The notes under the pieces were generated by a model, which worked only from the letters and a program-made list of their open reading frames with translations, ran no database searches and was not told the DNA's origin. From NCBI GenBank assembly GCA_028712705.1, contig JAQTPP010000003.1:52-64051 (forward strand): DNA of 64,000 bases, written 5' to 3'. Every line of letters begins with the position of its first letter. Positions within the stretch are counted from its first letter, which is position 1. Source of the stretch: Candidatus Daviesbacteria bacterium (GTDB lineage: Bacteria > Patescibacteriota > Microgenomatia > Daviesbacterales > UBA10151). The position numbers and the translations under genes are program-made. Below, piece by piece: positions 23,686-64,000 of the stretch.

Positions 23686-25099
23686 CTTTAAAAACTTTTT
23701 TGACAGCCTGATTAAATTTTCTACCCCTATCGAATTCGTTTTGGAATAAATTAAAAGAAGTGGCCGCCGGAGAAAAGAGAATGATATCGTTTGGTTTAAC
23801 AATTTTTTTAATATCTGTAAGCAGATTTTCGAAATTATTGTAAGTTCCTGCAATTTTATCTGATGACTGACGGCTGATAGCCTGTCCGTCCGGCAGGCGG
23901 GCTGACAGCTGTTTCTTTATTTCATCAGTTGAATCCCCTTCCAAAAAGAAAACCTTTTTGACAAATTTGCCAACTACCTCTGCATATTTTGTATAATCCA
24001 TTTTTTTATTCATCCCCCCGCAAATTAAAATTAGACACCCTAGGGGTGAATTTAGGTTGCCACCTAAGGTTTTTATAGCCTGGATTCCTGCTTCCGGACT
24101 GGTGGCAGCAGTGTCATTATAAATCCTTACTCCATGCCAAACTTTAATAAGTTCCATCCTGAATGGGATACCTTTGAACTTTGATAGAATTTTAAGAGCG
24201 GATTTTTTACCAATTCCGAAGGTTCCCCCAACAGTTATGGCGGCAGCAATATTTTCCAGATTATGACTGCCTAAAAGTTTAGGATGAAAGTTTTCTGATA
24301 AATCATTTTTAGAGAAACGGATAATATGAGCCTTAAGCCCAGTCAGAAAATTTGCCTGGTCTATCAATGAGTCGTTTCTTCTTATGAAAAGAAAATCATT
24401 TTGGGTCTGATATTTGCCAATAATCCTTTTGGAGAAAACGTAGTCTTTCATGGTGACATAATAATTAAGGTGATCTGGTGTGATATTAGTGATCACTGCC
24501 CATTTTGGGGAAATCTTGTGCGTATCATATGCTTCCAGTTGGAACGAAGAAATCTCCAAAACTACCAAGCTATTTTTTTTAACAGACGAAATTGTATCCA
24601 GAACGCTTTTGCCGATATTGCCGGCCAAAATAACATTTTTCCAAGGGTGTGTGCGTTGTCCACCCCTGGGGTGGGATAGGTTGACACCTAAGGATTTGCT
24701 GAGTACTTCATAAATTAGCGAGGCAGTAGTGGATTTGCCTTTGGTTCCGGTTACTCCAATGATCTGGTCAGGTCTTACATATTGCAGAAAAATTCCCATG
24801 TCTGTGTCAATCTGTTTACCCAATTTTGTGGCATATTCCAGGTAAGGATTTCCTGGTTTAATTGCCGGGTTTTTGATAATTAAATCTGCCCAATCTATAT
24901 CCTCATTTTTGTGTTCGCCTAAGGTATATTCTATTTGCGGAAAATCTCTTAACTCATCCAAAGAAGATTTTAAAACTTCTTTAGTTTTTAAATCAGTTAC
25001 CCTGACTTCGGCTCCTTGTCTTGCAAAAAATCTGGCAGATCCCACCCCACCTTCATTAAGTCCTAATCCAAAGACCAAAACCTTTTTAAAACTATTCAT
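23678..25099 (-). CDS. murD: UDP-N-acetylmuramoyl-L-alanine--D-glutamate ligase
   Basis: GVTGTKGKSTT P-loop and Mur ligase C-terminal domain. Located in the ddl/alr/murC neighbourhood. Confidence 0.85.
   Translation of the reverse strand: MNSFKKVLVFGLGLNEGGVGSARFFARQGAEVRVTDLKTKEVLKSSLDELRDFPQIEYTLGEHKNEDIDWADLIIKNPAIKPGNPYLEYATKLGKQIDTDMGIFLQYVRPDQIIGVTGTKGKSTTASLIYEVLSKSLGVNLSHPRGGQRTHPWKNVILAGNIGKSVLDTISSVKKNSLVVLEISSFQLEAYDTHKISPKWAVITNITPDHLNYYVTMKDYVFSKRIIGKYQTQNDFLFIRRNDSLIDQANFLTGLKAHIIRFSKNDLSENFHPKLLGSHNLENIAAAITVGGTFGIGKKSALKILSKFKGIPFRMELIKVWHGVRIYNDTAATSPEAGIQAIKTLGGNLNSPLGCLILICGGMNKKMDYTKYAEVVGKFVKKVFFLEGDSTDEIKKQLSARLPDGQAISRQSSDKIAGTYNNFENLLTDIKKIVKPNDIILFSPAATSFNLFQNEFDRGRKFNQAVKKVFKDA
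24036..24056. repeat. Second copy of 21-bp palindromic motif CACCCTAGGGGTGAATTTAGG, in-frame inside murD
   Basis: Encodes LGGNLNSPLGC in MurD, about 5 aa longer than the E. coli MurD equivalent region. Identical 21-mer at 6519-6539. Confidence 0.6.
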
Positions 25100-53035: not shown

Positions 53036-54607
53036 ATGTCAAAAACATTAAATAAATTATCAGCCAGCTTAGTTGCGGCATACGACAGGATTTCTACCCC
53101 AAGCCAGGATAAAACTATTTCAGTTAATCCGCTGGTGGCCGAAATTGCCACCTGGTATGAAAAATTCCGCACGGCGATTGATTACCGGGAGGACGAAGTG
53201 ATACTGCGTTCCACCATTGAGCGGATTTTGAAAAGGAGACTAATTTTAGGAGGAAACGGGCAGACAGTTGCTGCCCCTTTGATTAGAGAACTGGTTTGGG
53301 CCCGCTACTTTCCTGATTCATCTGTGCCCGAAGCATTGGTTAGCAAAGTGGCTGAAGCAATAGATTTGTATTTGAGCCTGGAGGAGCTGATAAATAAAAA
53401 GCACCGCTTTAACAGTGGTTTGGTCAATGAATGGATTTTAAATCTTTTATCCGCCGAGATCGAACATATTCTCAAACCCAATGATTCAAAAGACGTCATG
53501 AGTAATTTTATATTCGGGATTTTCAAAGACAGAATTACTATTCCTGACGATACCGAAGAAACAAGAGACTTACAAACTTTTATTGCGGTAAGAAGGTCGT
53601 ATGCCAATGACGACCTGGCCTTCTTACGTTACCATTTATTTAAGCAGTATTTCGGAGGGTTGACAAAAGGAAATATTGATCGGGTTGCCGAACGCTTCCC
53701 GGAGGCGCTCACTCAAATTGAATATCAATTTCGCTACCCGGCAAAAGATAAAATCTATTCATATATTAAAAATCAGGTTATTCCGTTTTTGATTTTGGAT
53801 GATGTTTTAAGAAAACATCGGGAAAGTGGTTTTTCCATAACTTTGGACAAAGACCTCTTGCACTTCGAAGTGCTGTCTGCCTGTAACAGGAGATACAAGA
53901 CAATTTCCGCAAAAGTCAAAAGAGGAATTATCAGAAGCGTCATTTTTATATTTTTTACAAAAGCAATTTTTGCTTTGCTTGTGGAAGGAACTTTTGAAAG
54001 ATTCATTTACGGTTATGTAATATGGTCATCCATGGCATTAAATACTCTCACGCCGCCGCTTCTGATGATCATAGTTGGGCTTTTCATTAAAAGTCCAGGT
54101 AGAGATAATTCAATGAGAATCCTCCGAAAAATAGATACTATTTTATATGATGATCCTCCGGAGTTAGACCCGCCTTTAGCGGTTAAGAAAAAACCTGGCA
54201 AAACAGGGCCGGTGTTTTGGACACTGTTTATCCTACTTTGGCTGACCACTTTTGTTGTAAGCTTTGGGGTGATGGTGTTTATTTTGACCAAGCTGCACGT
54301 TAATCCACTTTCTCAGGCCGTCTTTATCTTTTTCCTGGCAATTGTATCGTTTGTGACATATCGGATAAATCGGACAGCCAATATGTATACCATGAAAGAC
54401 AGGAAGGATAATTTTGGCTCTTTATTTTTTAACTTTTTCTTCCTGCCGGTTATCCAGGTTGGGAGAAGATTAACTATGGCAATCAGCCAAATAAATATAA
54501 TTCTTTTTATATTTGATTTTATAATTGAAACTCCATTTAAAGGCATTTTTGCCTTTTTTGAACAATGGTTTCTCTTCCTTAGGACCCAAAGAGAAAAACT
54601 GGATTGA
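53036..54607 (+). CDS. Hypothetical protein, about 290-aa soluble N-domain plus 4-5 C-terminal TM helices
   Basis: 523-aa ORF. No recognisable motif. Confidence 0.45.
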   Translation: MSKTLNKLSASLVAAYDRISTPSQDKTISVNPLVAEIATWYEKFRTAIDYREDEVILRSTIERILKRRLILGGNGQTVAAPLIRELVWARYFPDSSVPEALVSKVAEAIDLYLSLEELINKKHRFNSGLVNEWILNLLSAEIEHILKPNDSKDVMSNFIFGIFKDRITIPDDTEETRDLQTFIAVRRSYANDDLAFLRYHLFKQYFGGLTKGNIDRVAERFPEALTQIEYQFRYPAKDKIYSYIKNQVIPFLILDDVLRKHRESGFSITLDKDLLHFEVLSACNRRYKTISAKVKRGIIRSVIFIFFTKAIFALLVEGTFERFIYGYVIWSSMALNTLTPPLLMIIVGLFIKSPGRDNSMRILRKIDTILYDDPPELDPPLAVKKKPGKTGPVFWTLFILLWLTTFVVSFGVMVFILTKLHVNPLSQAVFIFFLAIVSFVTYRINRTANMYTMKDRKDNFGSLFFNFFFLPVIQVGRRLTMAISQINIILFIFDFIIETPFKGIFAFFEQWFLFLRTQREKLD

Positions 54608-55019: not shown

Positions 55020-55730
55020 TTGAAATGGTTTAAAACACTCTCCCACTTGACGAGTGGGAATACAGATATAGATAATAAATGTGTGGTTAATCCTTCATTT
55101 ACTAGCGGTAGCTTTTATCATATTTATAATCGGGGTGTTGAAAAAAGAAAAATCTTTATGGATAAATGGGATTATTTACGATTTTTGGAAACGCTGGATT
55201 TTTATCGTAAATCACCTGTACCGATGAAGCTTTCTGATTACAGAAGAGGTATAATAAAACTTAAAAAGATAGAAAATCAAGCAGAATTAATTCAAATATT
55301 TTGCTATATTCTGATGCCAAATCATTTTCATCTCTTAATTCAGCAATTAATAGATGGTGGTATATCAGGGTTTATGAGAAAGATAGCAGATAGTTATACA
55401 AGATATTTTAATACAAAATACGAGCGAGTTGGTTCTTTATTCCAGGGAGTTTTCAAGATGAAGTTGGTGGAGACCGACGAGTATTTATTGCAATTGTCAA
55501 AATATATTCATCGAAACAGCTTCCCACTTGACGAGTGGGAAGGTAAAGTTTATCCATATTCTTCATATCCTTACTACTTATCAGGGGAACCCCATCCTTT
55601 TTGTGAGACAAGCTTCATTTCTTCCTATTTTTCTAAAACTAATCCTAATTTAAGCTATCAGTCTTTTGTAGAAGAAACAGGAATTGGAGACCCTGCTTTA
55701 TTTGATTTATTAATTGATGCCGATGATTAA
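55020..55730 (+). CDS. tnpA: IS200/IS605-family HuH (Y1) transposase TnpA / REP-associated tyrosine transposase-like
   Basis: FYHIYNRGVEKRKIF, ILMPNHFHLLI (HuH), catalytic Tyr in SKYIHRN. A GTG at 55083 is a possible true start. Confidence 0.75.
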   Translation: MKWFKTLSHLTSGNTDIDNKCVVNPSFTSGSFYHIYNRGVEKRKIFMDKWDYLRFLETLDFYRKSPVPMKLSDYRRGIIKLKKIENQAELIQIFCYILMPNHFHLLIQQLIDGGISGFMRKIADSYTRYFNTKYERVGSLFQGVFKMKLVETDEYLLQLSKYIHRNSFPLDEWEGKVYPYSSYPYYLSGEPHPFCETSFISSYFSKTNPNLSYQSFVEETGIGDPALFDLLIDADD

Positions 55731-55763: not shown

Positions 55764-55851
55764 AATAAAGCTTCTTGTAAAATGTTTGGAATTCAAGCAC
55801 AATAATAAATAGATCCTTCGGCTAATCGCCTCAGGATGACAGAGGAGAGTT

Positions 55852-56571
55852 ATGGAACATGCAATAGTACTAAAGCCTGAGATCTTGGGTTATTTTAAAT
55901 TTTTACCGATCACCAATACTCTTTTAGTAAGCTGGATCACAATGCTTGTTCTTATTGTAGTGTCAATCCTTGCTACCCGGAAAGTGCAACTGATTCCCTC
56001 CGGTTTACAAAGTTTATTTGAAATAGTTTTAGATTTTGGCTATACCACAGTTTCGGATTTGGCAGGAGAAAAAAAGACAGCAGTGTTTTTTCCGGTGGTC
56101 ATGACATTTTTTTTGTTTATCTTGGTCGCAAACTGGATCGGACTTTTGCCCGGGTTTGCAACTATTACTTTTGATAAAGAGCCACTGCTTCGTTCCATGA
56201 ATTCCGATCTAAATATGACTTTGGCCCTGGCCTTGACTTCTGCTTTTTTAACCCATGCTTTTGCAATAAGATACCTGGGTTTTTTAGGTTATTTAAGTAA
56301 ATGGTTTAGTTTAAACCCGATATTTTTATTCGTGGGAATTTTGGAGATCGTTTCCGAGTTGACTAAAATAGTATCGTTATCTTTCAGGCTTTTTGGTAAT
56401 ATATTTGCAGGTGAGGTGGTGCTGTCAACGGTTTCATCGATTTTTGCTTTTTTAGCGCCGCTCCCTTTTTATTTTCTGGAAATTATTGTAGGATTTGTAC
56501 AGGCAGCTGTTTTTATGATGTTGACTTTAGTTTTTATGGTTCTTTTATCAGAGAAACATGAAGCTGGTTAA
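55852..56571 (+). CDS. atpB: F0F1 ATP synthase subunit a
   Basis: LSFRLFGNIFAGEVVL carries the essential Arg. Five TM helices. Confidence 0.9.
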   Translation: MEHAIVLKPEILGYFKFLPITNTLLVSWITMLVLIVVSILATRKVQLIPSGLQSLFEIVLDFGYTTVSDLAGEKKTAVFFPVVMTFFLFILVANWIGLLPGFATITFDKEPLLRSMNSDLNMTLALALTSAFLTHAFAIRYLGFLGYLSKWFSLNPIFLFVGILEIVSELTKIVSLSFRLFGNIFAGEVVLSTVSSIFAFLAPLPFYFLEIIVGFVQAAVFMMLTLVFMVLLSEKHEAG

Positions 56572-56594
56572 ACAAAACAAAGAAAGGAGATAAA

Positions 56595-56801
56595 ATGCCA
56601 GAGAATTTTGCATCGGGTTTCACTATTGCATTAGGAGCGATGTTTCCGGCTTTTGCCATCGGTTTGATCGGTTACAAAGCTATGGAAGCAATCGGTCGTA
56701 ATCCGGATGCCCAAACTAAAATTTTGCCGGCCATGCTTTTAAGTATGGCTTTTGCAGAAGCTATTGCTATCTACGCTTTGGTGATAGCTTTTATTAAATA
56801 A
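56595..56801 (+). CDS. atpE: F0F1 ATP synthase subunit c
   Basis: 68-aa hairpin with GLIGYKAMEAIGRNP loop and conserved Glu in helix 2. Confidence 0.9.
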   Translation: MPENFASGFTIALGAMFPAFAIGLIGYKAMEAIGRNPDAQTKILPAMLLSMAFAEAIAIYALVIAFIK

Positions 56802-56943
56802 GCAGCTCATCAGAGCGCAAAAAACCGCTCGCGCGACCAGATCGCTCGCTTGAGGTTTGCTTTGTGCCGAGTATAGATACAGTCATGGGTAAAGTAGTGC
56901 ACAAAGCTGCACCACATTTTTTGACTGCTTCTGATTTCGCTGT

Positions 56944-57447
56944 TTGATAATTATGGAAATATTAAACGAATTTGGGATAAATCCAATACTTTTAGCCGCG
57001 CAAGCAGTTAATTTTGCGATACTTCTTTTTATTTTAAAGAAGTTTATGTATAAGCCAATCTTAAAAGTTTTAGAAGAGCGTAAAAAAAGAATTGCAGAAA
57101 GTTTAAAAAACGCAGAAGAGATAGAGAAAAGATTGCAGGAAACCAATGAGAAAATAGATGTTATGATCGCTAAAGCTGCAAACGAGGCGCAGAAAATAAT
57201 TGATGAATCAAAAAAAGAAGGCGTCCTGTATCTTGAGGAGACCAAGCAAAAGGCCGGCGAGATGGCGCAAGAGTTAATTAAAAAGAGCGAAGAAGCTGCC
57301 CGCGCTGAAACTGCAAAAATGCAGCAGGAAGTAATGAACAAAGTAGCAGAGATTGTAGCTATGGGGCTACAGAAAGTAACAGGTAAGATTTTAAACAAAA
57401 AAGACCAAAGAGAGATAATTGAAAGGAGTGTTAAAAACTTGTCATGA
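56944..57447 (+). CDS. atpF: F0F1 ATP synthase subunit b
   Basis: N-terminal TM helix followed by a long charged coiled-coil. Confidence 0.8.
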   Translation: MIIMEILNEFGINPILLAAQAVNFAILLFILKKFMYKPILKVLEERKKRIAESLKNAEEIEKRLQETNEKIDVMIAKAANEAQKIIDESKKEGVLYLEETKQKAGEMAQELIKKSEEAARAETAKMQQEVMNKVAEIVAMGLQKVTGKILNKKDQREIIERSVKNLS

Positions 57448-57845
57448 CAAAAAAAGAGTTACAAAAAAAAGTCGCTAAATTAGTGAATATCAGCTTTAAA
57501 GACGGCAGAATGGTTGAGTCCTGCGCAGTCAAGTCAATTAAAGCTCTTAAGTCTCTACCAAGATATGAAGCGATTTTTGCTTTATCAGAATATTTGAAAG
57601 GAATACGAAGAATTGAAAGAGAGCATACCTTGTATATTGAAACGCTAGTGCCGCTTTCCCCCGCTCAGGTTAAAAAGGCAAAAAAGTTGGCAGAGAAAAA
57701 GACTCAGATCACTAAAGTTTTGGTGAATATTAACCCGGAAATCTTAGGCGGGTTTAAATTAAAGATCGGTGATGAAATTTGGGATGAATCTGTCTTAGGG
57801 AAAATCAGTCAAGTAAAGGAGGTTATACAAGGCAACTATGAGTGA
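57444..57845 (+). CDS. atpH: F0F1 ATP synthase subunit delta (short form)
   Basis: C-terminal OSCP-like [16 protein letters not shown]. 133 aa. Confidence 0.7.
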
Positions 57846-59353
57846 TCTGGTTGATCAAATAGAATCACAAATTAAAGGTTTGAAACTGGCTGCTCAAAAG
57901 CAAAATGTGGGAGTAGTTACTGAAATTGGTGACGGAGTAGCTAGAGTAGAAGGTTTATCAGATGTTCAATACTCCGAGCTTGTGGATTTTGGTCCTTCGG
58001 CAGACTCAGGACGAGTTTATGGTTTGGCTTTGAATTTGGAACAATACAATGTCGGAACAGTTATTTTTGGAGATTTTACAAAAGTAAAAGAGGGAGACAA
58101 AGTCAAAACTACAGGCGCAGTTTTACAGGTTCCGGTTGGTGAAGGATTAATTGGCCGGGTGGTTGATGGTTTAGGCAATCCAATTGACGGTAAAGGGGTG
58201 ATTAAGGTTAAAGATCACTACCCGGTGGAAAAAATTGCCCCGGGTGTTATTACCAGACAATCAGTCAATACTCCGCTGCAAACAGGCATTAAAGCAATTG
58301 ATGCTATGATCCCGATTGGCCGGGGGCAGCGGGAGTTGATTATAGGTGATAGAAATACCGGAAAAACTACCATTGCCGTAGATACGATTATAAATCAAAA
58401 AGACGTGGTCTGCATTTATGTCGCAATCGGTCAGAAAACTTCCAAAGTGGTCCAACTGGTAGCTAAACTGGAAGAATCCGGAGCCATGGAACACACCATT
58501 ATAGTTTCCGCCTCTGCCTCTGATTCTGTCACCATGCAATATCTGGCCCCGTATGCAGGTTGTGCCATGGGTGAGTATTTCATGGATCAAGGTAAGGACG
58601 TCTTGATTGTCTATGATGATTTGTCTAAACACGCTTGGGCATATAGGCAAATGTCTCTGCTTCTTCGGCGCCCGTCAGGCCGTGAAGCTTATCCCGGAGA
58701 CGTATTTTATCTTCACTCCAGATTACTCGAGCGGGCTGCAAAACTAAATAAAGACTTCGGCGGAGGATCGCTGACTGCCCTGCCGATTATTGAGACACAA
58801 GCAGGCGATGTTTCAGCGTATATTCCGACCAATGTTATATCGATAACCGATGGACAGATCTATTTAGAATCGGATCTCTTTTTTGCCGGAATCAGGCCGG
58901 CTGTTAACGTGGGTTTATCTGTTTCCAGGGTTGGCGGTGATGCTCAAATAAAAGCTATGAAGGCAGTGGCAGGGAAACTCCGGTTAGATCTGGCCCAATT
59001 CAGGGCTTTGCAAGCTTTTGCCCAATTTTCCTCAGATTTGGATGCCGCCACAAAATCCCAGATAGAACGGGGAAAAAGGATTACGGAAATCTTAAAGCAG
59101 GTTCCCTTTAATCCTGTTCCGGTTGAAGAACAAGTGGTTTCTCTTTGGGCAGTCACAAACGGGTTTTTGGATGAGATAGAAGTTGATAAGGTGCGGGAAT
59201 TTGAACAAAAGTATATCGCTCATATTAAACTTCGACAGAAAAAACTACTTGTTGAGATAGCGTCTAAGAAAGAATTGGATGAAAAAATGGTTTTAGAACT
59301 TGAGAAAATAACTAAAGAGTTCGTTGGAGTATTTGCGAAAGGGATGAAGAAAA

Positions 59354-59361
<8 letters not shown>
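57838..59361 (+). CDS. atpA: F0F1 ATP synthase subunit alpha
   Basis: [19 protein letters not shown]-loop. Confidence 0.95.
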
Positions 59362-61793
<2,432 letters not shown>

Positions 61794-61796
61794 AAA

Positions 61797-62108
61797 TTAG
61801 TTTCCCCCAGTCACTAATTCTATAAGCAGATTGGCATATTGGATATCTCTTCTGGTAGTGCGAACTTTCTGCCGGAAACGCTCTGAAGTAAATCTTCTCA
61901 GCCCTCTTTCAACCTTTCTGATGGTATCTGGTTCTGTTATTTCTCCAAATACGATTCCGTTTTCAAGATGAGCAACTAATCCTTGAAACCAACTTTTTCG
62001 AACTTTAAAATTGTTGTTTGGAGAAGTACTATGCAAAATTTCCTCAGGAATTTCGTCACTGTACCCCCCCCGATACCTAATAAGATCTTCTCTAAATTCT
62101 TTATTCAT
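61797..62108 (-). CDS. Hypothetical protein (inserted between atpD and atpC)
   Basis: 103-aa ORF, basic. No motif. Confidence 0.4.
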   Translation of the reverse strand: MNKEFREDLIRYRGGYSDEIPEEILHSTSPNNNFKVRKSWFQGLVAHLENGIVFGEITEPDTIRKVERGLRRFTSERFRQKVRTTRRDIQYANLLIELVTGGN

Positions 62109-62194
62109 AACGGATAGGTATTATACAGCAAACTTGTTGCGATCGTGAGAAAAATGTGTGTTTAGCTTTATACCTTGAAGGCGTCAAACTGAAA

Positions 62195-62467
62195 TTATTT
62201 GTATAGTTGGCTGTGGGTGCCCAGCATTTCAAAAGAAACAACAATATAAGAATTATTTTCCTTTATCACTAAAAATACCGCTCTCCAGTCGCCGGTAATA
62301 TTAATGCTTCTATATCCGGAGTATTTCCCGGAAAGCGGATGATTGTGAAGTTGTGGATAAAAAGGATTTTTGTTAAATAATTCTACGCGTTTTTTAAATG
62401 CCCGTTTTATTTTTCCGTCTGCCCGTTCGTATTCCTTAACGAACTCTCTTGCGTAGCTGATTTTCAT
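62195..62467 (-). CDS. YafQ/RelE-family toxin (paralogue of 3366-3623)
   Basis: LSGKYSGYRSINITGDWRAVF...HSQLY. Shares the GYRSINITGD decapeptide with the first copy. Confidence 0.7.
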   Translation of the reverse strand: MKISYAREFVKEYERADGKIKRAFKKRVELFNKNPFYPQLHNHPLSGKYSGYRSINITGDWRAVFLVIKENNSYIVVSFEMLGTHSQLYK

Positions 62468-62750
62468 ATTTTCTTCTAGGATTATCTAACCAGGCAAACG
62501 CATCTTTCGTATTGTCAAAGGTAGGAGAAATATAACCTTTTCTTCTATCTTTTTTTGCTTCTTCAAGGGATTTTATCAGATATTCGGAAGGTTCCTCGGA
62601 AACATCAAGAATTACTCTTTTGGTTCTAATAAGTTGTTTAATGTAGGACTTCAAAAGGGTACTTAGAGGCACACCAAATTCGCTTGCTATAAGTTGGGCT
62701 TCCCTTTTCATTTTAGGATCAATTTTAAGATTAACTATCGCGTAATTCAT
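62436..62750 (-). CDS. RelB/DinJ-like RHH antitoxin
   Basis: AIVNLKIDPKMKREAQLIASEFGVPLSTLLKSYI RHH pattern. Overlaps the toxin by 32 bp. Confidence 0.6.
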   Translation of the reverse strand: MNYAIVNLKIDPKMKREAQLIASEFGVPLSTLLKSYIKQLIRTKRVILDVSEEPSEYLIKSLEEAKKDRRKGYISPTFDNTKDAFAWLDNPRRKYENQLRKRVR

Positions 62751-62790
62751 GGTATACCCAGTATACCCTCAGTATACCCCTTTGTCAATA
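62751..62790 (-). promoter_or_regulatory. Leaderless toxin-antitoxin promoter with three GGTATAC operator repeats (minus strand TTGACA-N17-TATACT)
   Basis: Reverse complement reads ttgaca aaggggtatactgagggtatactgggtatacc ATG. The GTATAC palindromes overlap the -10. Confidence 0.4.
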
Positions 62791-62814
62791 CATGGAGTTT
62801 GTACTTTTAGATGA

Positions 62815-63183
62815 TTAGCTGGAGACTGTTTCAAATGTCCCGTCAAGGTGAAGATAAATTGTTTCTACTTTTAAATTTTTATCAAAAGCTTCTATTTGAT
62901 TTTTTGCTTCTTCCAAGTCCTGGATATGTTGTTCATGGGTTCCTTCTTCTCCGTATGCCCCGCAATCCTCATGGTTTATTAAAATAACTTTTTTAATATG
63001 GTGCAGCGTGCGTGAGATATCCACTTGTTTTAACATATAATCCAAATCAAATACCCCTCCTGCTATTGCTACCCTATCATATGTTTTTGGGGCAAAATTT
63101 TCCGCAATCCAATTGTTTATATATTCCTGGAATCTGAAATCAATGCAGGTGACGATGATTGTTTCGCAAGTATGAATGTTCAT
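62815..63183 (-). CDS. Small beta-carbonic-anhydrase-like protein (CxDxR ... HxxC motifs)
   Basis: VTCIDFR and INHEDCGAYG are spaced about 58 aa apart as in beta-CA zinc ligands. Only 122 aa. Confidence 0.4.
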   Translation of the reverse strand: MNIHTCETIIVTCIDFRFQEYINNWIAENFAPKTYDRVAIAGGVFDLDYMLKQVDISRTLHHIKKVILINHEDCGAYGEEGTHEQHIQDLEEAKNQIEAFDKNLKVETIYLHLDGTFETVSS

Positions 63184-63217
63184 ATTTCGCCTTAGACAAT
63201 AATGTATAATATCATAT

Positions 63218-63628
63218 ATGGCTTCGCTACAGTTGAAAATTGTTACTCCTGAAAGCCTTATTTTTGATGAGGAAGTCTCACAAGTTAATGTTTCAACTCA
63301 GCAGGGTCAAATCGGCATACTTCCCCATCATGCCAATTTAATGGCCAGGCTTTCACCCGGGGAACTGGTGATTAAAAAAAACGGCAAAGTAGATTCTATG
63401 GCAATCGGAGACGGGTTTTTACAGGTGGCGGATAATACTTTGATTGTGATGACGGATCTGGCAACTTATGCCACAGATATAGACGAAAGGGCTGTTGAAG
63501 AAGCCAAAAAACGGGCAGAGGTGGTATTAACCCAAACCTTGTCTGGTGAGGAATATGCAGAGACTTTTGCAAATTTGCAGAAATCCCTGGCTCAACTTAG
63601 GGTTAAAAGACGACATAAAGTAAGATAA
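63218..63628 (+). CDS. atpC: F0F1 ATP synthase subunit epsilon
   Basis: LQLKIVTPESLIFDEEVSQVNVSTQQGQIGILPHHANL. Confidence 0.85.
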   Translation: MASLQLKIVTPESLIFDEEVSQVNVSTQQGQIGILPHHANLMARLSPGELVIKKNGKVDSMAIGDGFLQVADNTLIVMTDLATYATDIDERAVEEAKKRAEVVLTQTLSGEEYAETFANLQKSLAQLRVKRRHKVR

Positions 63629-63848
63629 CAATATCCTTAGCTTGCTGGCTCGTCGGTGCACAAAGCACCGCTCGGCTAGTAGTTACTGTAGCATTAAAGT
63701 TTCTCTCTAGCCTCGCTATGTGAAGATTTTGCGGTTGGCATCTGCACACAAAATTTTCAGATTGCTTTGGTTGCACTCGACTTCGCCAGCATCTTACTTG
63801 TGAGTTTGCTTTGAGGTTACATTCTGATTGTTATACAATTATCATCAC

Positions 63849-64000
63849 ATGGCAAATAGTGAAAATCCCGAGTTATCCATCATAATCTTAAATTTTAATG
63901 TCAAGGAGTTACTTCTAAATTGTCTAGAATCTATTTTCCAAAGCAAGGGCAAGTTGGATTGGTGGCAAGTTATAGTAGTTGATAACGCTTCAGACGATGG
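63849..64000 (+). CDS. Glycosyltransferase family 2, N-terminal fragment (3' truncated by window edge)
   Basis: LSIIILNFNVKELLLNCLESIF...VIVVDNASDD is the GT2 N-terminal DxD-region pattern. Confidence 0.65.
   Translation, partial: MANSENPELSIIILNFNVKELLLNCLESIFQSKGKLDWWQVIVVDNASDD

Follow-up and report, generated by a model that had tools for sequence, protein, structure and literature searches.

The gene for the epsilon subunit of the F-type ATP synthase (atpC) lies apart from its operon in the Candidatus Daviesbacteria genome studied here. We think it likely that this separation is an old layout common to Daviesbacteria as a whole, in which a beta-carbonic-anhydrase-like gene (Pro_CA_2) is the partner of atpC, atpC has a promoter of its own, and only the toxin-antitoxin pair in the intervening DNA is recent mobile cargo. 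An initial annotation of the 64,000-nt stretch of DNA analysed (the window throughout) had noticed that the canonical abutment of atpD and atpC is broken by four minus-strand genes, as is indeed the case, and its family assignments hold by profile scores, for the toxin at superfamily level. Its view of the four genes as a single 1.4-kb insertion fares differently: Pro_CA_2 is conserved beside atpC across Daviesbacteria and in other lineages, and the block formed by the two genes has 91.5% DNA identity to that of the closest genome (L082), which lacks the toxin-antitoxin pair and the remaining gene, coding for a protein of 103 aa.

Layout of the atp locus

All eight structural genes of the F-type ATP synthase are intact and stand in the usual order and orientation, from atpB (at 55852) to atpD (ending at 61793) and then atpC. 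The last gene of the atpBEFHAGD unit, atpD (F1 beta; 60354–61793, plus strand; TIGR01039, 818 bits), was called mechanically as an open reading frame at 60333–61793 from a GTG at 60333; its likely start is the ATG at 60354, and homologs align from residue 8 onward. The atpC gene (F1 epsilon; 63218–63628, plus strand) is full length, scores 111.1 bits against TIGR01216 (cut-off 67.25), matches both of its domains (PF02823 and PF00401) and encodes a protein 96% identical to the epsilon subunit of GCA_028715175.1. In the canonical operon, atpD and atpC share a strand and adjoin or overlap each other; in the window, 1424 nt separate the atpD stop from the atpC start.

The four genes in between are, from the atpD side, the 103-aa gene (61797–62108), a RelE/YafQ-superfamily toxin of 90 aa (62195–62467), a RelB/DinJ-like antitoxin of 104 aa (62436–62750) and Pro_CA_2 (122 aa; 62815–63183), all on the minus strand. 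We refer to the DNA between the stops of atpD and Pro_CA_2 (61794–62814), a convergent 3'-3' junction occupied here by the 103-aa gene and the toxin-antitoxin pair, as the variable slot, and to the 34 nt between Pro_CA_2 and atpC (63184–63217) as the divergent control region. A search of positions 61000–64000 against Rfam (E≤1) returned no structured RNA match. Elsewhere in the window, an IS200-like gene lies at 55020–55730, 6 kb upstream of the slot.

Conservation of the split and of the Pro_CA_2–atpC link

In each of the 18 Daviesbacteria-like loci, atpD and atpC are 411–5108 nt apart; for 57 other loci the median distance is 46 nt (range −4 to 2078 nt). Where atpC homologs have a source name, it is almost always Daviesbacteria. 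Pro_CA_2 is divergent from atpC and directly upstream of it in 16 of 19 informative Daviesbacteria genomes (a minus-strand Pro_CA_2 in L002, L003, L005–L007, L009–L013, L015, L016, L018, L019, L023 and L082); it is absent beside atpC in three informative Daviesbacteria-like loci (L004, L021 and L022). The minimal state is seen in L010, where Pro_CA_2 is the sole gene between atpD and atpC and the slot measures 21 nt.

Outside Daviesbacteria, atpC is followed by Pro_CA_2 on the same strand in three loci (L025, L036 and L065), and the lineages with this atpD-atpC-Pro_CA_2 order are probably other Patescibacteria. Additionally, a metagenome scan seeded on Pro_CA_2 alone recovered atpC as well in 37 of the 51 loci whose upstream flank was 1 kb or longer, a sample dominated by one clade (39 loci fall into one cluster at 70% identity); the link was found in at least 12 of 21 clusters at 50% identity. 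The arrangement was co-directional in 43 of the metagenome Pro_CA_2 loci, with a median gap of 141 nt, and variant orders occur, for example atpA-CA-atpG-atpD-atpC in L139 and a convergent Pro_CA_2/atpC pair in L142. As atpC was not nearby in the other 14 of the 51 loci, the link is strong and not obligatory. We found no description of it in the literature on carbonic anhydrases and the ATP synthase operon in CPR bacteria.

In some genomes, zeta-type (CDCA) carbonic-anhydrase homologs have been recruited to the same spot. The other CxDxR proteins beside atpC, namely one of 358 aa in L005, one of 495 aa in L004 and the CDCA-like proteins, were considered as Pro_CA_2 homologs and rejected, profile comparison giving motif-level matches only and nothing significant.

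A minimal beta-carbonic-anhydrase-like protein

The 122-aa protein belongs to PF20393 (Pro_CA_2; 65.6 bits, cut-off 30) and falls short of the cut-off of the beta-carbonic anhydrase family PF00484 (15.9 bits against 25.7). It carries the motifs C13-I-D15-F-R17 and H71-E-D-C74, whose C13, D15, R17, H71 and C74 are invariant in an alignment of 26 homologs and correspond to the Cys-His-Cys zinc ligands and the Asp-Arg dyad. An AlphaFold2 model (pLDDT 87.8) was compared with the PDB using Foldseek, and all 50 of 50 among the matches listed were beta-carbonic anhydrases, the best being 1g5c (E 8.5e-6) with a TM-score of 0.75 when normalised by the query and of 0.56 when normalised by the target, the latter value implying that parts of the classical fold are missing from Pro_CA_2. 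By family, residues and predicted fold, the protein is thus beta-carbonic-anhydrase-like, and it may be an active enzyme. Enzymes with this fold also include COS and CS2 hydrolases, so the substrate of Pro_CA_2 need not be CO2. A literature search on PF20393 turned up no experimental data.

A putative promoter of atpC

A consensus −10 box, TATAAT, lies at 63205–63210 within the divergent control region, with 7 nt between it and the start codon of atpC, and the gene lacks a Shine-Dalgarno motif. Of 22 Daviesbacteria-like loci, 19 have this box 4–12 nt ahead of atpC, whichever gene lies upstream, compared with 6 of 57 others (Fisher p=2e-10); Shine-Dalgarno-like motifs show the reverse tendency (3 of 22 against 23 of 57). 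Such leaderless-type promoters are frequent in the window, where they precede 18 of the 63 genes. From these sequence patterns, atpC appears to be a separate transcription unit with a leaderless-type promoter of its own. Our literature search on leaderless mRNAs in Patescibacteria found nothing relevant.

The variable slot and its cargo

Across 15 genomes the slot ranges from 21 to 3345 nt and its cargo is different in each, which bears out the suggestion of the initial annotation that the locus is a site of gene flux. Genes found there in other genomes include ParE-like, DUF433/PIN-like and HicA genes, IS200-like transposases, a glyoxalase, a dCTP deaminase, a deformylase and an HD hydrolase. 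In the comparison with L082 by blastn, atpD homology stops at 61783, nothing in 61794–62815 has a counterpart, and the slot of L082 is 299 nt long with a 77-aa ORF. This difference may be due either to gain or to loss of cargo. We detected no recombinase by domain search of 61794–62814 and no attachment-site motif shared by the slot borders of the 15 genomes. Neither the insert nor the toxin-antitoxin pair is flanked in the window by direct or inverted repeats beyond short matches of chance size, and fragments of atpD, Pro_CA_2, atpC or the 237-aa gene of L082 were found neither in the slot nor downstream of atpC.

The toxin-antitoxin pair has a type II layout, in which the antitoxin comes first, is co-directional with the toxin, overlaps it by 32 nt and is preceded by the one upstream promoter; the pair recurs in L170, L172 and L175. 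The toxin exceeds the cut-offs of PF15738 (YafQ_toxin; 40.0 bits, cut-off 30) and TIGR02385 (RelE_StbE; 45.5 bits, cut-off 27.9) and stays below that of the YafQ-specific TIGR00053 (46.3 bits against 87.25). Of the earlier description as YafQ-like, the RelE/YafQ superfamily therefore stands and the YafQ subfamily proper does not, and the toxin is better placed in the RelE/StbE family. Aligned by eye, the residue that we take to be the equivalent of His63 in E. coli YafQ is an Asn. Its 289 homologs, where a source name is given, come from Daviesbacteria, Amesbacteria or unclassified Patescibacteria. By analogy with its family, the toxin would be a ribosome-dependent mRNA endonuclease. The antitoxin lies just under the cut-offs of PF04221 (RelB; 21.4 bits against 22.4) and TIGR02384 (RelB_DinJ; 33.5 against 45.65), both matches being full length from residue 1; it matches the unnamed antitoxin family phrog_2737 (E 1e-11), and precomputed PF04221 matches exist for its homologous counterparts in L170, L172 and L175. 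For the four proteins encoded between atpD and atpC, PADLOC gave nothing useful and PHROGs returned only the RelE-like toxin and this antitoxin family.

Of all sigma-70-type matches in the 4 kb scanned, the promoter of the antitoxin gene is the best, with TTGACA at 62788–62783, a spacer of 17 nt and TATACT at 62765–62760 (11 of 12 positions). The ATG follows the end of the −10 box by 9 nt, in keeping with the leaderless-type promoter that had been proposed for it. The heptamer GGTATAC occurs 11 times in the window (2.9 expected); three minus-strand copies (62752–62758, 62761–62767 and 62772–62778) cover the −10 box and the start site here, with a palindromic overlap on the plus strand. Promoter and putative operator together span 62752–62788 on the minus strand. 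Both the TTGACA and the repeats are kept in the L170 copy. Through this putative operator, the antitoxin, alone or with the toxin, may repress its own promoter.

Judged by its similarity pattern, which is discordant with that of the adjoining Pro_CA_2, the RelB/RelE-type pair is mobile. In L170, toxin and antitoxin are 91% and 87% identical to those of the window, behind a Pro_CA_2 that is only 63% identical, and the homology ends exactly at the toxin stop codon. Furthermore, homologs with 62–69% identity stand directly behind atpC in L002, L171 and L172–L174.

The 103-aa gene, whose stop lies 3 nt from that of atpD and whose own consensus −10 box (TATAAT, 62120–62125, minus strand) is 11 nt upstream of its ATG, has a different history. 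Its product had no match in Pfam, NCBIfam, PHROG or PADLOC, and larger homologs contained no informative domain; it belongs to a family of small helical proteins, with 267 representative clusters matching at E≤1e-3, whose alignment has conserved motifs, and its AlphaFold2 model is a confident helical bundle (pLDDT 94.4). A fold search of the PDB with this model gave nothing at E<1, and a profile search of PDB sequences gave one weak match (E 0.025) to a 15 kDa RNA polymerase-binding protein. In L166–L169, a 73%-identical homolog adjoins a relic of atpD, a copy of its last ~78 nt, and a cassette of DUF6941, VapB and PIN genes lies between the relic and the real atpD end. Divergence between the two copies of the atpD end in L166 is more readily explained by recombination with foreign DNA than by site-specific integration. 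The 103-aa gene is thus an older resident of the slot, common to at least one other lineage. We considered it as a third component of the toxin-antitoxin system and rejected this in view of its own −10 box, its absence from the L170 copy and its occurrence without the pair in L166 and L165; the separate occurrences in L170 and L166 show, moreover, that the three slot genes are not a single cassette.

Alternative readings of the locus

One explanation, that the arrangement is a mis-assembly or chimera, has in its favour that the window comes from a metagenome-assembled genome and that repeats are present inside its atp genes, and we regard it as practically negligible: an independently assembled Logan contig (L001, identical to L164; run SRR22315508) is 100% identical over 2251 nt from the 3' end of atpD through atpC, covering every junction, so the arrangement is not an assembly artefact, and the same architecture is seen in dozens of independent assemblies. 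This contig was also the only match when the window's atpC and toxin were looked up by exact sequence. Hardly more credible is a single recent insertion of four foreign genes that broke an intact atpDC in this strain. It would account for the orientation of all four genes on the strand opposite the atp genes, for the slightly lower GC content of the insert (0.34–0.39 against 0.44–0.51 in atpD) and for the absence of three of the four from the nearest genome; what it leaves unexplained is a Pro_CA_2 kept in the same place in most of the Daviesbacteria genomes and a split present in all, the high identity of the Pro_CA_2 and atpC block to that of L082, the separate occurrence of the pair and the 103-aa gene in other loci, and the failure to find flanking repeats. 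The initial annotation had itself set a lineage-wide arrangement with a defined atpC promoter against a recent event, and we found both the split in all Daviesbacteria-like loci and a conserved −10 box, alongside toxin-antitoxin cargo that is strain-specific. The insertion is therefore refuted for Pro_CA_2 and for the split, and survives for the toxin-antitoxin pair only.

Two further questions concern the expression of atpC and the meaning of its neighbour. That atpC is expressed by read-through from atpD, antisense to four genes, with the TATAAT a chance match in AT-rich DNA, is unlikely in our judgement. The −35 region of the proposed promoter is indeed poor, −10-like hexamers are frequent in the genome, and a terminator scan predicted no intrinsic terminator downstream of atpD or atpC; against this, the box is kept across Daviesbacteria-like loci, and is rare elsewhere, despite a varying upstream neighbour, atpC lacks the Shine-Dalgarno motif on which a leadered transcript would rely, and a read-through transcript would have to cross 0.4–5 kb of genes that lie mostly on the opposite strand and differ in every genome. 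The adjacency of Pro_CA_2 and atpC, on the other hand, could be inherited gene order without functional meaning, Pro_CA_2 being an ordinary stand-alone enzyme, a reading we find somewhat doubtful and take seriously. It is in line with the metagenome loci where atpC is not nearby, in which Pro_CA_2 has unrelated neighbours (HlyIII, BipA, prephenate dehydratase, DUF2207), and with the lack of Pro_CA_2 in most sampled CPR atp loci, including those of Levybacteria, Uhrbacteria and Saccharibacteria. Less easily reconciled with it is the persistence of the link in at least four arrangements (co-directional after atpC, divergent before it, between atpA and atpG, and convergent) and with Pro_CA_2 diverged to 35–40% identity; in Daviesbacteria the two genes stay joined as all their surroundings turn over, and further genes of carbonic-anhydrase type (CDCA, PF18484) also accumulate at this position. 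A gene kept beside atpC through several rearrangements would fit a protein that works with the ATPase, and our tentative proposal, which we would not yet call probable, is that this PF20393 mini beta-carbonic-anhydrase-like protein serves the F-type ATPase of some Patescibacteria as a dedicated accessory.

Proposed history and significance

Taking the lineage-wide split as our preferred reading, the locus was probably built in three layers. In the oldest, Pro_CA_2 would have travelled with atpC, as in the atpG-atpD-atpC-Pro_CA_2 order of several non-Daviesbacteria lineages, and in Daviesbacteria it would have moved between atpD and atpC on the opposite strand, which takes atpC off the atpBEFHAGD transcript. 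Transcription of atpC would then start from its own TATAAT promoter, ~7 nt before the ATG, giving a leaderless mRNA, back to back with the Pro_CA_2 promoter in the 34-nt spacer. The stops of atpD and Pro_CA_2 converge and no promoter lies at their junction, so insertions there disrupt little. In the intermediate layer, this junction has probably become the slot, with accessory genes entering and leaving it; the 103-aa gene is one such resident, and the arrival of the RelB/RelE-type pair directly behind Pro_CA_2 would be the recent layer.

The use of the F-type ATPase in CPR/Patescibacteria is an open question, as most of them are without a respiratory chain. In this context, the conserved and previously undescribed gene partnership of the regulatory subunit, epsilon, with a minimal carbonic-anhydrase-like protein provides a candidate partner of the ATPase that is testable by cloning. 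If it is indeed an accessory, Pro_CA_2 could interconvert CO2 and bicarbonate plus H+ at the proton-pumping, ATP-hydrolysing ATPase of fermentative cells or, alternatively, act on or with epsilon as a regulator; the two genes would then form, in Daviesbacteria, a separately regulated module with one bidirectional control region of the leaderless type. The locus may additionally serve as an evolutionary example of an operon, among the most conserved in bacteria, that was broken permanently, leaving a detached gene with, apparently, its own promoter and a promoter-free junction on which toxin-antitoxin modules and transposases have since landed. For annotation, it is a reminder that genes found inside an operon need be neither recent nor foreign.

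Comparison with known systems

The toxin-antitoxin pair resembles relBE and dinJ-yafQ in having a small antitoxin gene first, an overlapping gene for a toxin of ~90 aa from the RelE/YafQ superfamily and a strong promoter with possible operator repeats; it differs from them in a toxin that fails the YafQ-specific cut-off, an antitoxin just under the family cut-offs and an mRNA that would be leaderless. Pro_CA_2 shares with the beta-carbonic anhydrases (PF00484), such as Cab of Methanobacterium thermoautotrophicum (1g5c) and Rv1284 (1ylk), the invariant C-x-D-x-R and H-x-x-C-G-A motifs and the predicted fold. It is shorter, however, at 122 aa against 155–223 residues in the matched solved chains listed, and forms the separate family PF20393.

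Like the integration hotspots at the 3' ends of conserved genes (of the tRNA/tmRNA type, as in flexible genomic islands), the slot holds unrelated cargo, including toxin-antitoxin pairs and transposases, between two conserved anchors, and the 3' end of one anchor is duplicated in L166, as at an island boundary. Unlike them, it had no integrase in any slot examined and no attachment-site repeat in the slot of the window, and its anchors are atpD and Pro_CA_2 rather than an RNA gene.

Known splits of atp operons fall at other points, for example with atpBE apart in cyanobacteria and chloroplasts, and we found no description of a split between atpD and atpC in the literature on Daviesbacteria ATP synthase. 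Compared with the canonical atpIBEFHAGDC operon, the locus has kept the eight structural genes intact and in their usual order and orientation; the difference is that 1424 nt of genes on the other strand set atpC apart and that it has, apparently, its own promoter, a detachment that extends across the Daviesbacteria sampled.

A lineage-wide split of atpD and atpC

Between atpD, which ends at 61793 on the plus strand, and atpC (63218-63628, plus strand), both open reading frames that family scans identified unambiguously, lie four minus-strand genes. These are a 103-aa gene (61797-62108) without any match in family scans, a 90-aa toxin gene (62195-62467) scoring above cut-off for both YafQ_toxin (Pfam) and RelE/StbE (NCBIfam), a 104-aa antitoxin gene (62436-62750) with full-length RelB/DinJ matches scoring just below the cut-offs, and a 122-aa gene (62815-63183) whose product clearly belongs to PF20393 (Pro_CA_2, "putative carbonic anhydrase"). 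The positions in the initial annotation agree exactly with the ORFs found here, and family scans support its DinJ-like and beta-carbonic-anhydrase-like (beta-CA-like) assignments; the toxin, however, falls below the cut-off of the YafQ-specific model, which makes RelE/StbE family the better name. The arrangement is not an assembly artefact, since an independent Logan assembly of run SRR22315508 yielded a contig that matches the window with 100% identity over 2251 nt, spanning all junctions. Named homologs of atpC and Pro_CA_2 place the window in Candidatus Daviesbacteria.

We compared 80 loci from species-representative genomes, retrieved by atpC similarity and then mapped for atp genes. In the 57 loci from outside Daviesbacteria, a median of 46 nt (range -4 to 2078 nt) separates atpD from atpC, while the gap measures 411-5108 nt in all 18 Daviesbacteria-like loci with both genes mapped; the split is thus a trait of this lineage. 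The initial annotation had taken the four genes for a recent 1.4-kb insertion separating atpD from atpC. Its observation stands and its interpretation survives in part: a split in 18 of 18 loci is the outcome that it had itself named as refuting a recent insertion. Rather than an insertion of four genes, the region represents an atp locus rearranged throughout the lineage, in which Pro_CA_2 and atpC form a conserved module beside a junction of accessory-gene turnover.

Gene turnover between atpD and Pro_CA_2

Variation at the junction is confined to 61794-62814, a slot bounded by the stop codons of atpD and Pro_CA_2, which face each other. In the 15 genomes compared it ranges from 21 to 3345 nt, with no border motif common to the slots, and its cargo differs in each genome: a ParE-like toxin and antitoxin (L016), a DUF433/PIN-like pair (L018), HicA (L015), IS200-like transposases (L002, L009), and elsewhere a glyoxalase, dCTP deaminase, peptide deformylase or HD hydrolase. 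In L010, Pro_CA_2 is the sole gene between atpD and atpC, with 21 nt between the Pro_CA_2 and atpD stops. Against the closest genome (L082, GCA_028715175.1; epsilon 96% identical), DNA homology runs through atpD up to 61783, is lost, and restarts at 62816, precisely at the stop codon of Pro_CA_2, continuing at 91.5% identity to the end of atpC; L082 has one 77-aa ORF where the window has its three other genes. Some genomes have a second, smaller variable position between Pro_CA_2 and atpC, and a third lies immediately 3' of atpC, where L082 carries a 237-aa minus-strand gene overlapping the atpC end, of which no remnant was detected in the window. The ~220 nt 3' of atpC in the window (63629-63850) hold no ORF and no Rfam match.

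The toxin-antitoxin pair is an ordinary one, and it is mobile. In L170 its toxin is 91% and its antitoxin 87% identical to the window's, and the pair follows Pro_CA_2 in the same position and order, while Pro_CA_2 itself is merely 63% identical; homology stops exactly at the toxin stop codon. Remoter copies (62-69%) lie directly behind atpC in L002, L171 and L172-L174. The promoter of the pair (TTGACA, 17 nt, TATACT) and its overlying GGTATAC repeats are conserved in L170, and the repeats fit a putative autoregulatory operator. The hairpin ACACCCTTGGGGTGT flanks the RelB/RelE cassette on both sides in L170 (269-283 and 921-935) and a further copy adjoins the stop codon of Pro_CA_2 in L006 (5579-5593); the window has no copy, its closest match (at 24035) differing at 2 positions.

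The 103-aa gene belongs to a real, uncharacterised family (267 representative clusters), its product is modelled with confidence as a helical bundle to which no known fold corresponds, and it is older in the slot than the toxin-antitoxin pair. In L166-L169 a 73%-identical homolog adjoins a relic copy of the terminal ~78 nt of atpD, which a DUF6941, VapB and PIN cassette separates from the real atpD end, with an IS3 transposase beyond. An abutment of atpD and the 103-aa gene like that in the window therefore predated arrival of the cassette in that lineage, and cargo can enter by recombination at the conserved atpD 3' end. The two atpD-end copies bracketing DUF6941, VapB and PIN_3 (1394-1471 and 2674-2751 in L166, likewise in L167-L169) lie ~1.2 kb apart and have diverged, which suggests recombination bringing the cassette in with foreign DNA rather than replicative target duplication.

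Repeats and mosaicism in the atp operon

A 40-nt palindrome-containing repeat, GATTGCCACGGTCCGCCAAGGCGGACCTCGCAATGACAA, is inserted in frame in atpG (59988-60027) and atpD (60496-60535) at 95% identity, encoding the same peptide stretch in each. L082 lacks it, its atpG and atpD measuring 303 and 456 aa versus 311 and 479-486 in the window. The repeat resembles a mobile hairpin of the REP type that is tolerated within essential genes. Just upstream of atpB, the window carries an IS200-like Y1 transposase gene (55020-55730, plus strand; PF01797, E 2e-8) that L082 also lacks; transposases of the same family, 36-38% identical, occupy the slots of L002 and L009, and this enzyme may be what moves the hairpin repeats. 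Farther upstream lies a 523-aa ORF (53036-54607, plus strand) without a Pfam match that appears membrane-associated; L082 has a 523-residue gene in the same place before atpB.

DNA identity to L082 across 55771-63627 is mosaic: 87% in atpB-atpE, 88% in atpF-atpA, 76% in atpG, 81% in atpD and 91.5% in Pro_CA_2 and atpC. As atpD is usually the most conserved ATP synthase subunit, this pattern suggests recombination within the operon.

A probable leaderless-type start for atpC

A perfect TATAAT (63205-63210) lies 7 nt ahead of the atpC ATG, with no Shine-Dalgarno motif upstream in the window sequence. Scored as at least 5/6 matching positions 4-12 nt ahead of the ATG, such a box occurs in 19 of 22 Daviesbacteria-like loci (perfect in 13) versus 6 of 57 others (Fisher p=2e-10), irrespective of the upstream neighbour gene, whereas SD-like motifs show the opposite trend (3/22 versus 23/57). 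Among the 63 window ORFs of at least 90 aa, 18 carry, 4-11 nt upstream of the ATG, a -10-like box (at least 5/6 positions), and no more than 15 have an SD-like motif; leaderless-type starts therefore seem normal for this organism, in which they may be a common mode of initiation. From the box and SD pattern, its lineage contrast and these 18 genes, we infer that atpC forms a leaderless transcription unit of its own, and that it and Pro_CA_2 probably share a divergent control region of very short length.

Pairing of Pro_CA_2 with atpC

Of 19 informative Daviesbacteria genomes, 16 have an opposite-strand Pro_CA_2 ahead of atpC, in most cases with a spacer of 13-90 nt, and in three genomes outside the lineage (L025, L036, L065) the gene directly follows atpC on the same strand. 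Metagenome contigs were searched with a Pro_CA_2 alignment led by a non-Daviesbacteria member, so that loci were picked independently of atp genes. Among the 51 loci whose upstream flank reached 1 kb or more, 37 contained atpC; the order atpD-atpC-Pro_CA_2 was found in 43 loci (median gap 141 nt), while L139 has Pro_CA_2 between atpA and atpG and L142 has it convergent with atpC. Clustering at 50% identity gives 21 clusters, and the link recurs in 12 or more of them. One clade predominates in this sample and 14 loci lack any nearby atp gene, so the link, though strong, is not obligatory. Pro_CA_2 seems broken in two genomes, as two ORFs in L019 (3907-4271) and by a frameshift in L065 (6440-6876), which may be pseudogenes or sequencing errors.

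Our literature search found no paper describing the link. This pairing, in which some Patescibacteria have the gene of a minimal beta-CA-like protein associated with that of epsilon, is widespread and apparently undescribed; it merits attention, as does the putative independent leaderless-type atpC promoter of Daviesbacteria. A shared function behind the association is possible, though in our judgement less likely than not.

A minimal beta-CA-like protein

Several Daviesbacteria carry homologs of PF18484, the cadmium/zeta-class carbonic anhydrase (CDCA) repeat, between Pro_CA_2 and atpC. Matches score 39-56 bits (cut-off 29) in L002 (5248-5976), L007 (5268-5987), L014 (1174-1935), L171 (729-1382) and L155 (4376-5056), the last immediately after Pro_CA_2 with atpC not nearby; two distinct CA-type genes thus collect at one spot. 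Two more uncharacterised families lie directly 5' of atpC, one in L005 (4902-5978) and one in L004 (4493-5980), L008 (2-1339) and L014 (91-1110). Most of these proteins have a C-x-D-x-R motif: CSDAR...HFDC in L005, and CIDGR in the other family except the contig-truncated L014 copy, where it was not seen, with an added His-x9-Cys in L004. Neither family has a Pfam match, and in profile comparison neither is significantly similar to Pro_CA_2; any carbonic-anhydrase kinship is therefore unproven.

For Pro_CA_2 itself, the 50 PDB fold matches listed for an AlphaFold2 model (pLDDT 87.8) are all beta-carbonic anhydrases, the best being Cab (1g5c; query-normalised TM-score 0.75, E 8.5e-6). The residues invariant in 26 homologs (Cys13, Asp15, Arg17, His71 and Cys74) are those of the beta-CA motifs C-x-D-x-R and H-x-x-C-G-A. 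In length the 122-aa protein falls short of the solved beta-CA chains that it matches, and it misses the classical PF00484 beta-CA cut-off. It is thus beta-CA-like in predicted fold and metal site, with carbonic anhydrase activity putative.
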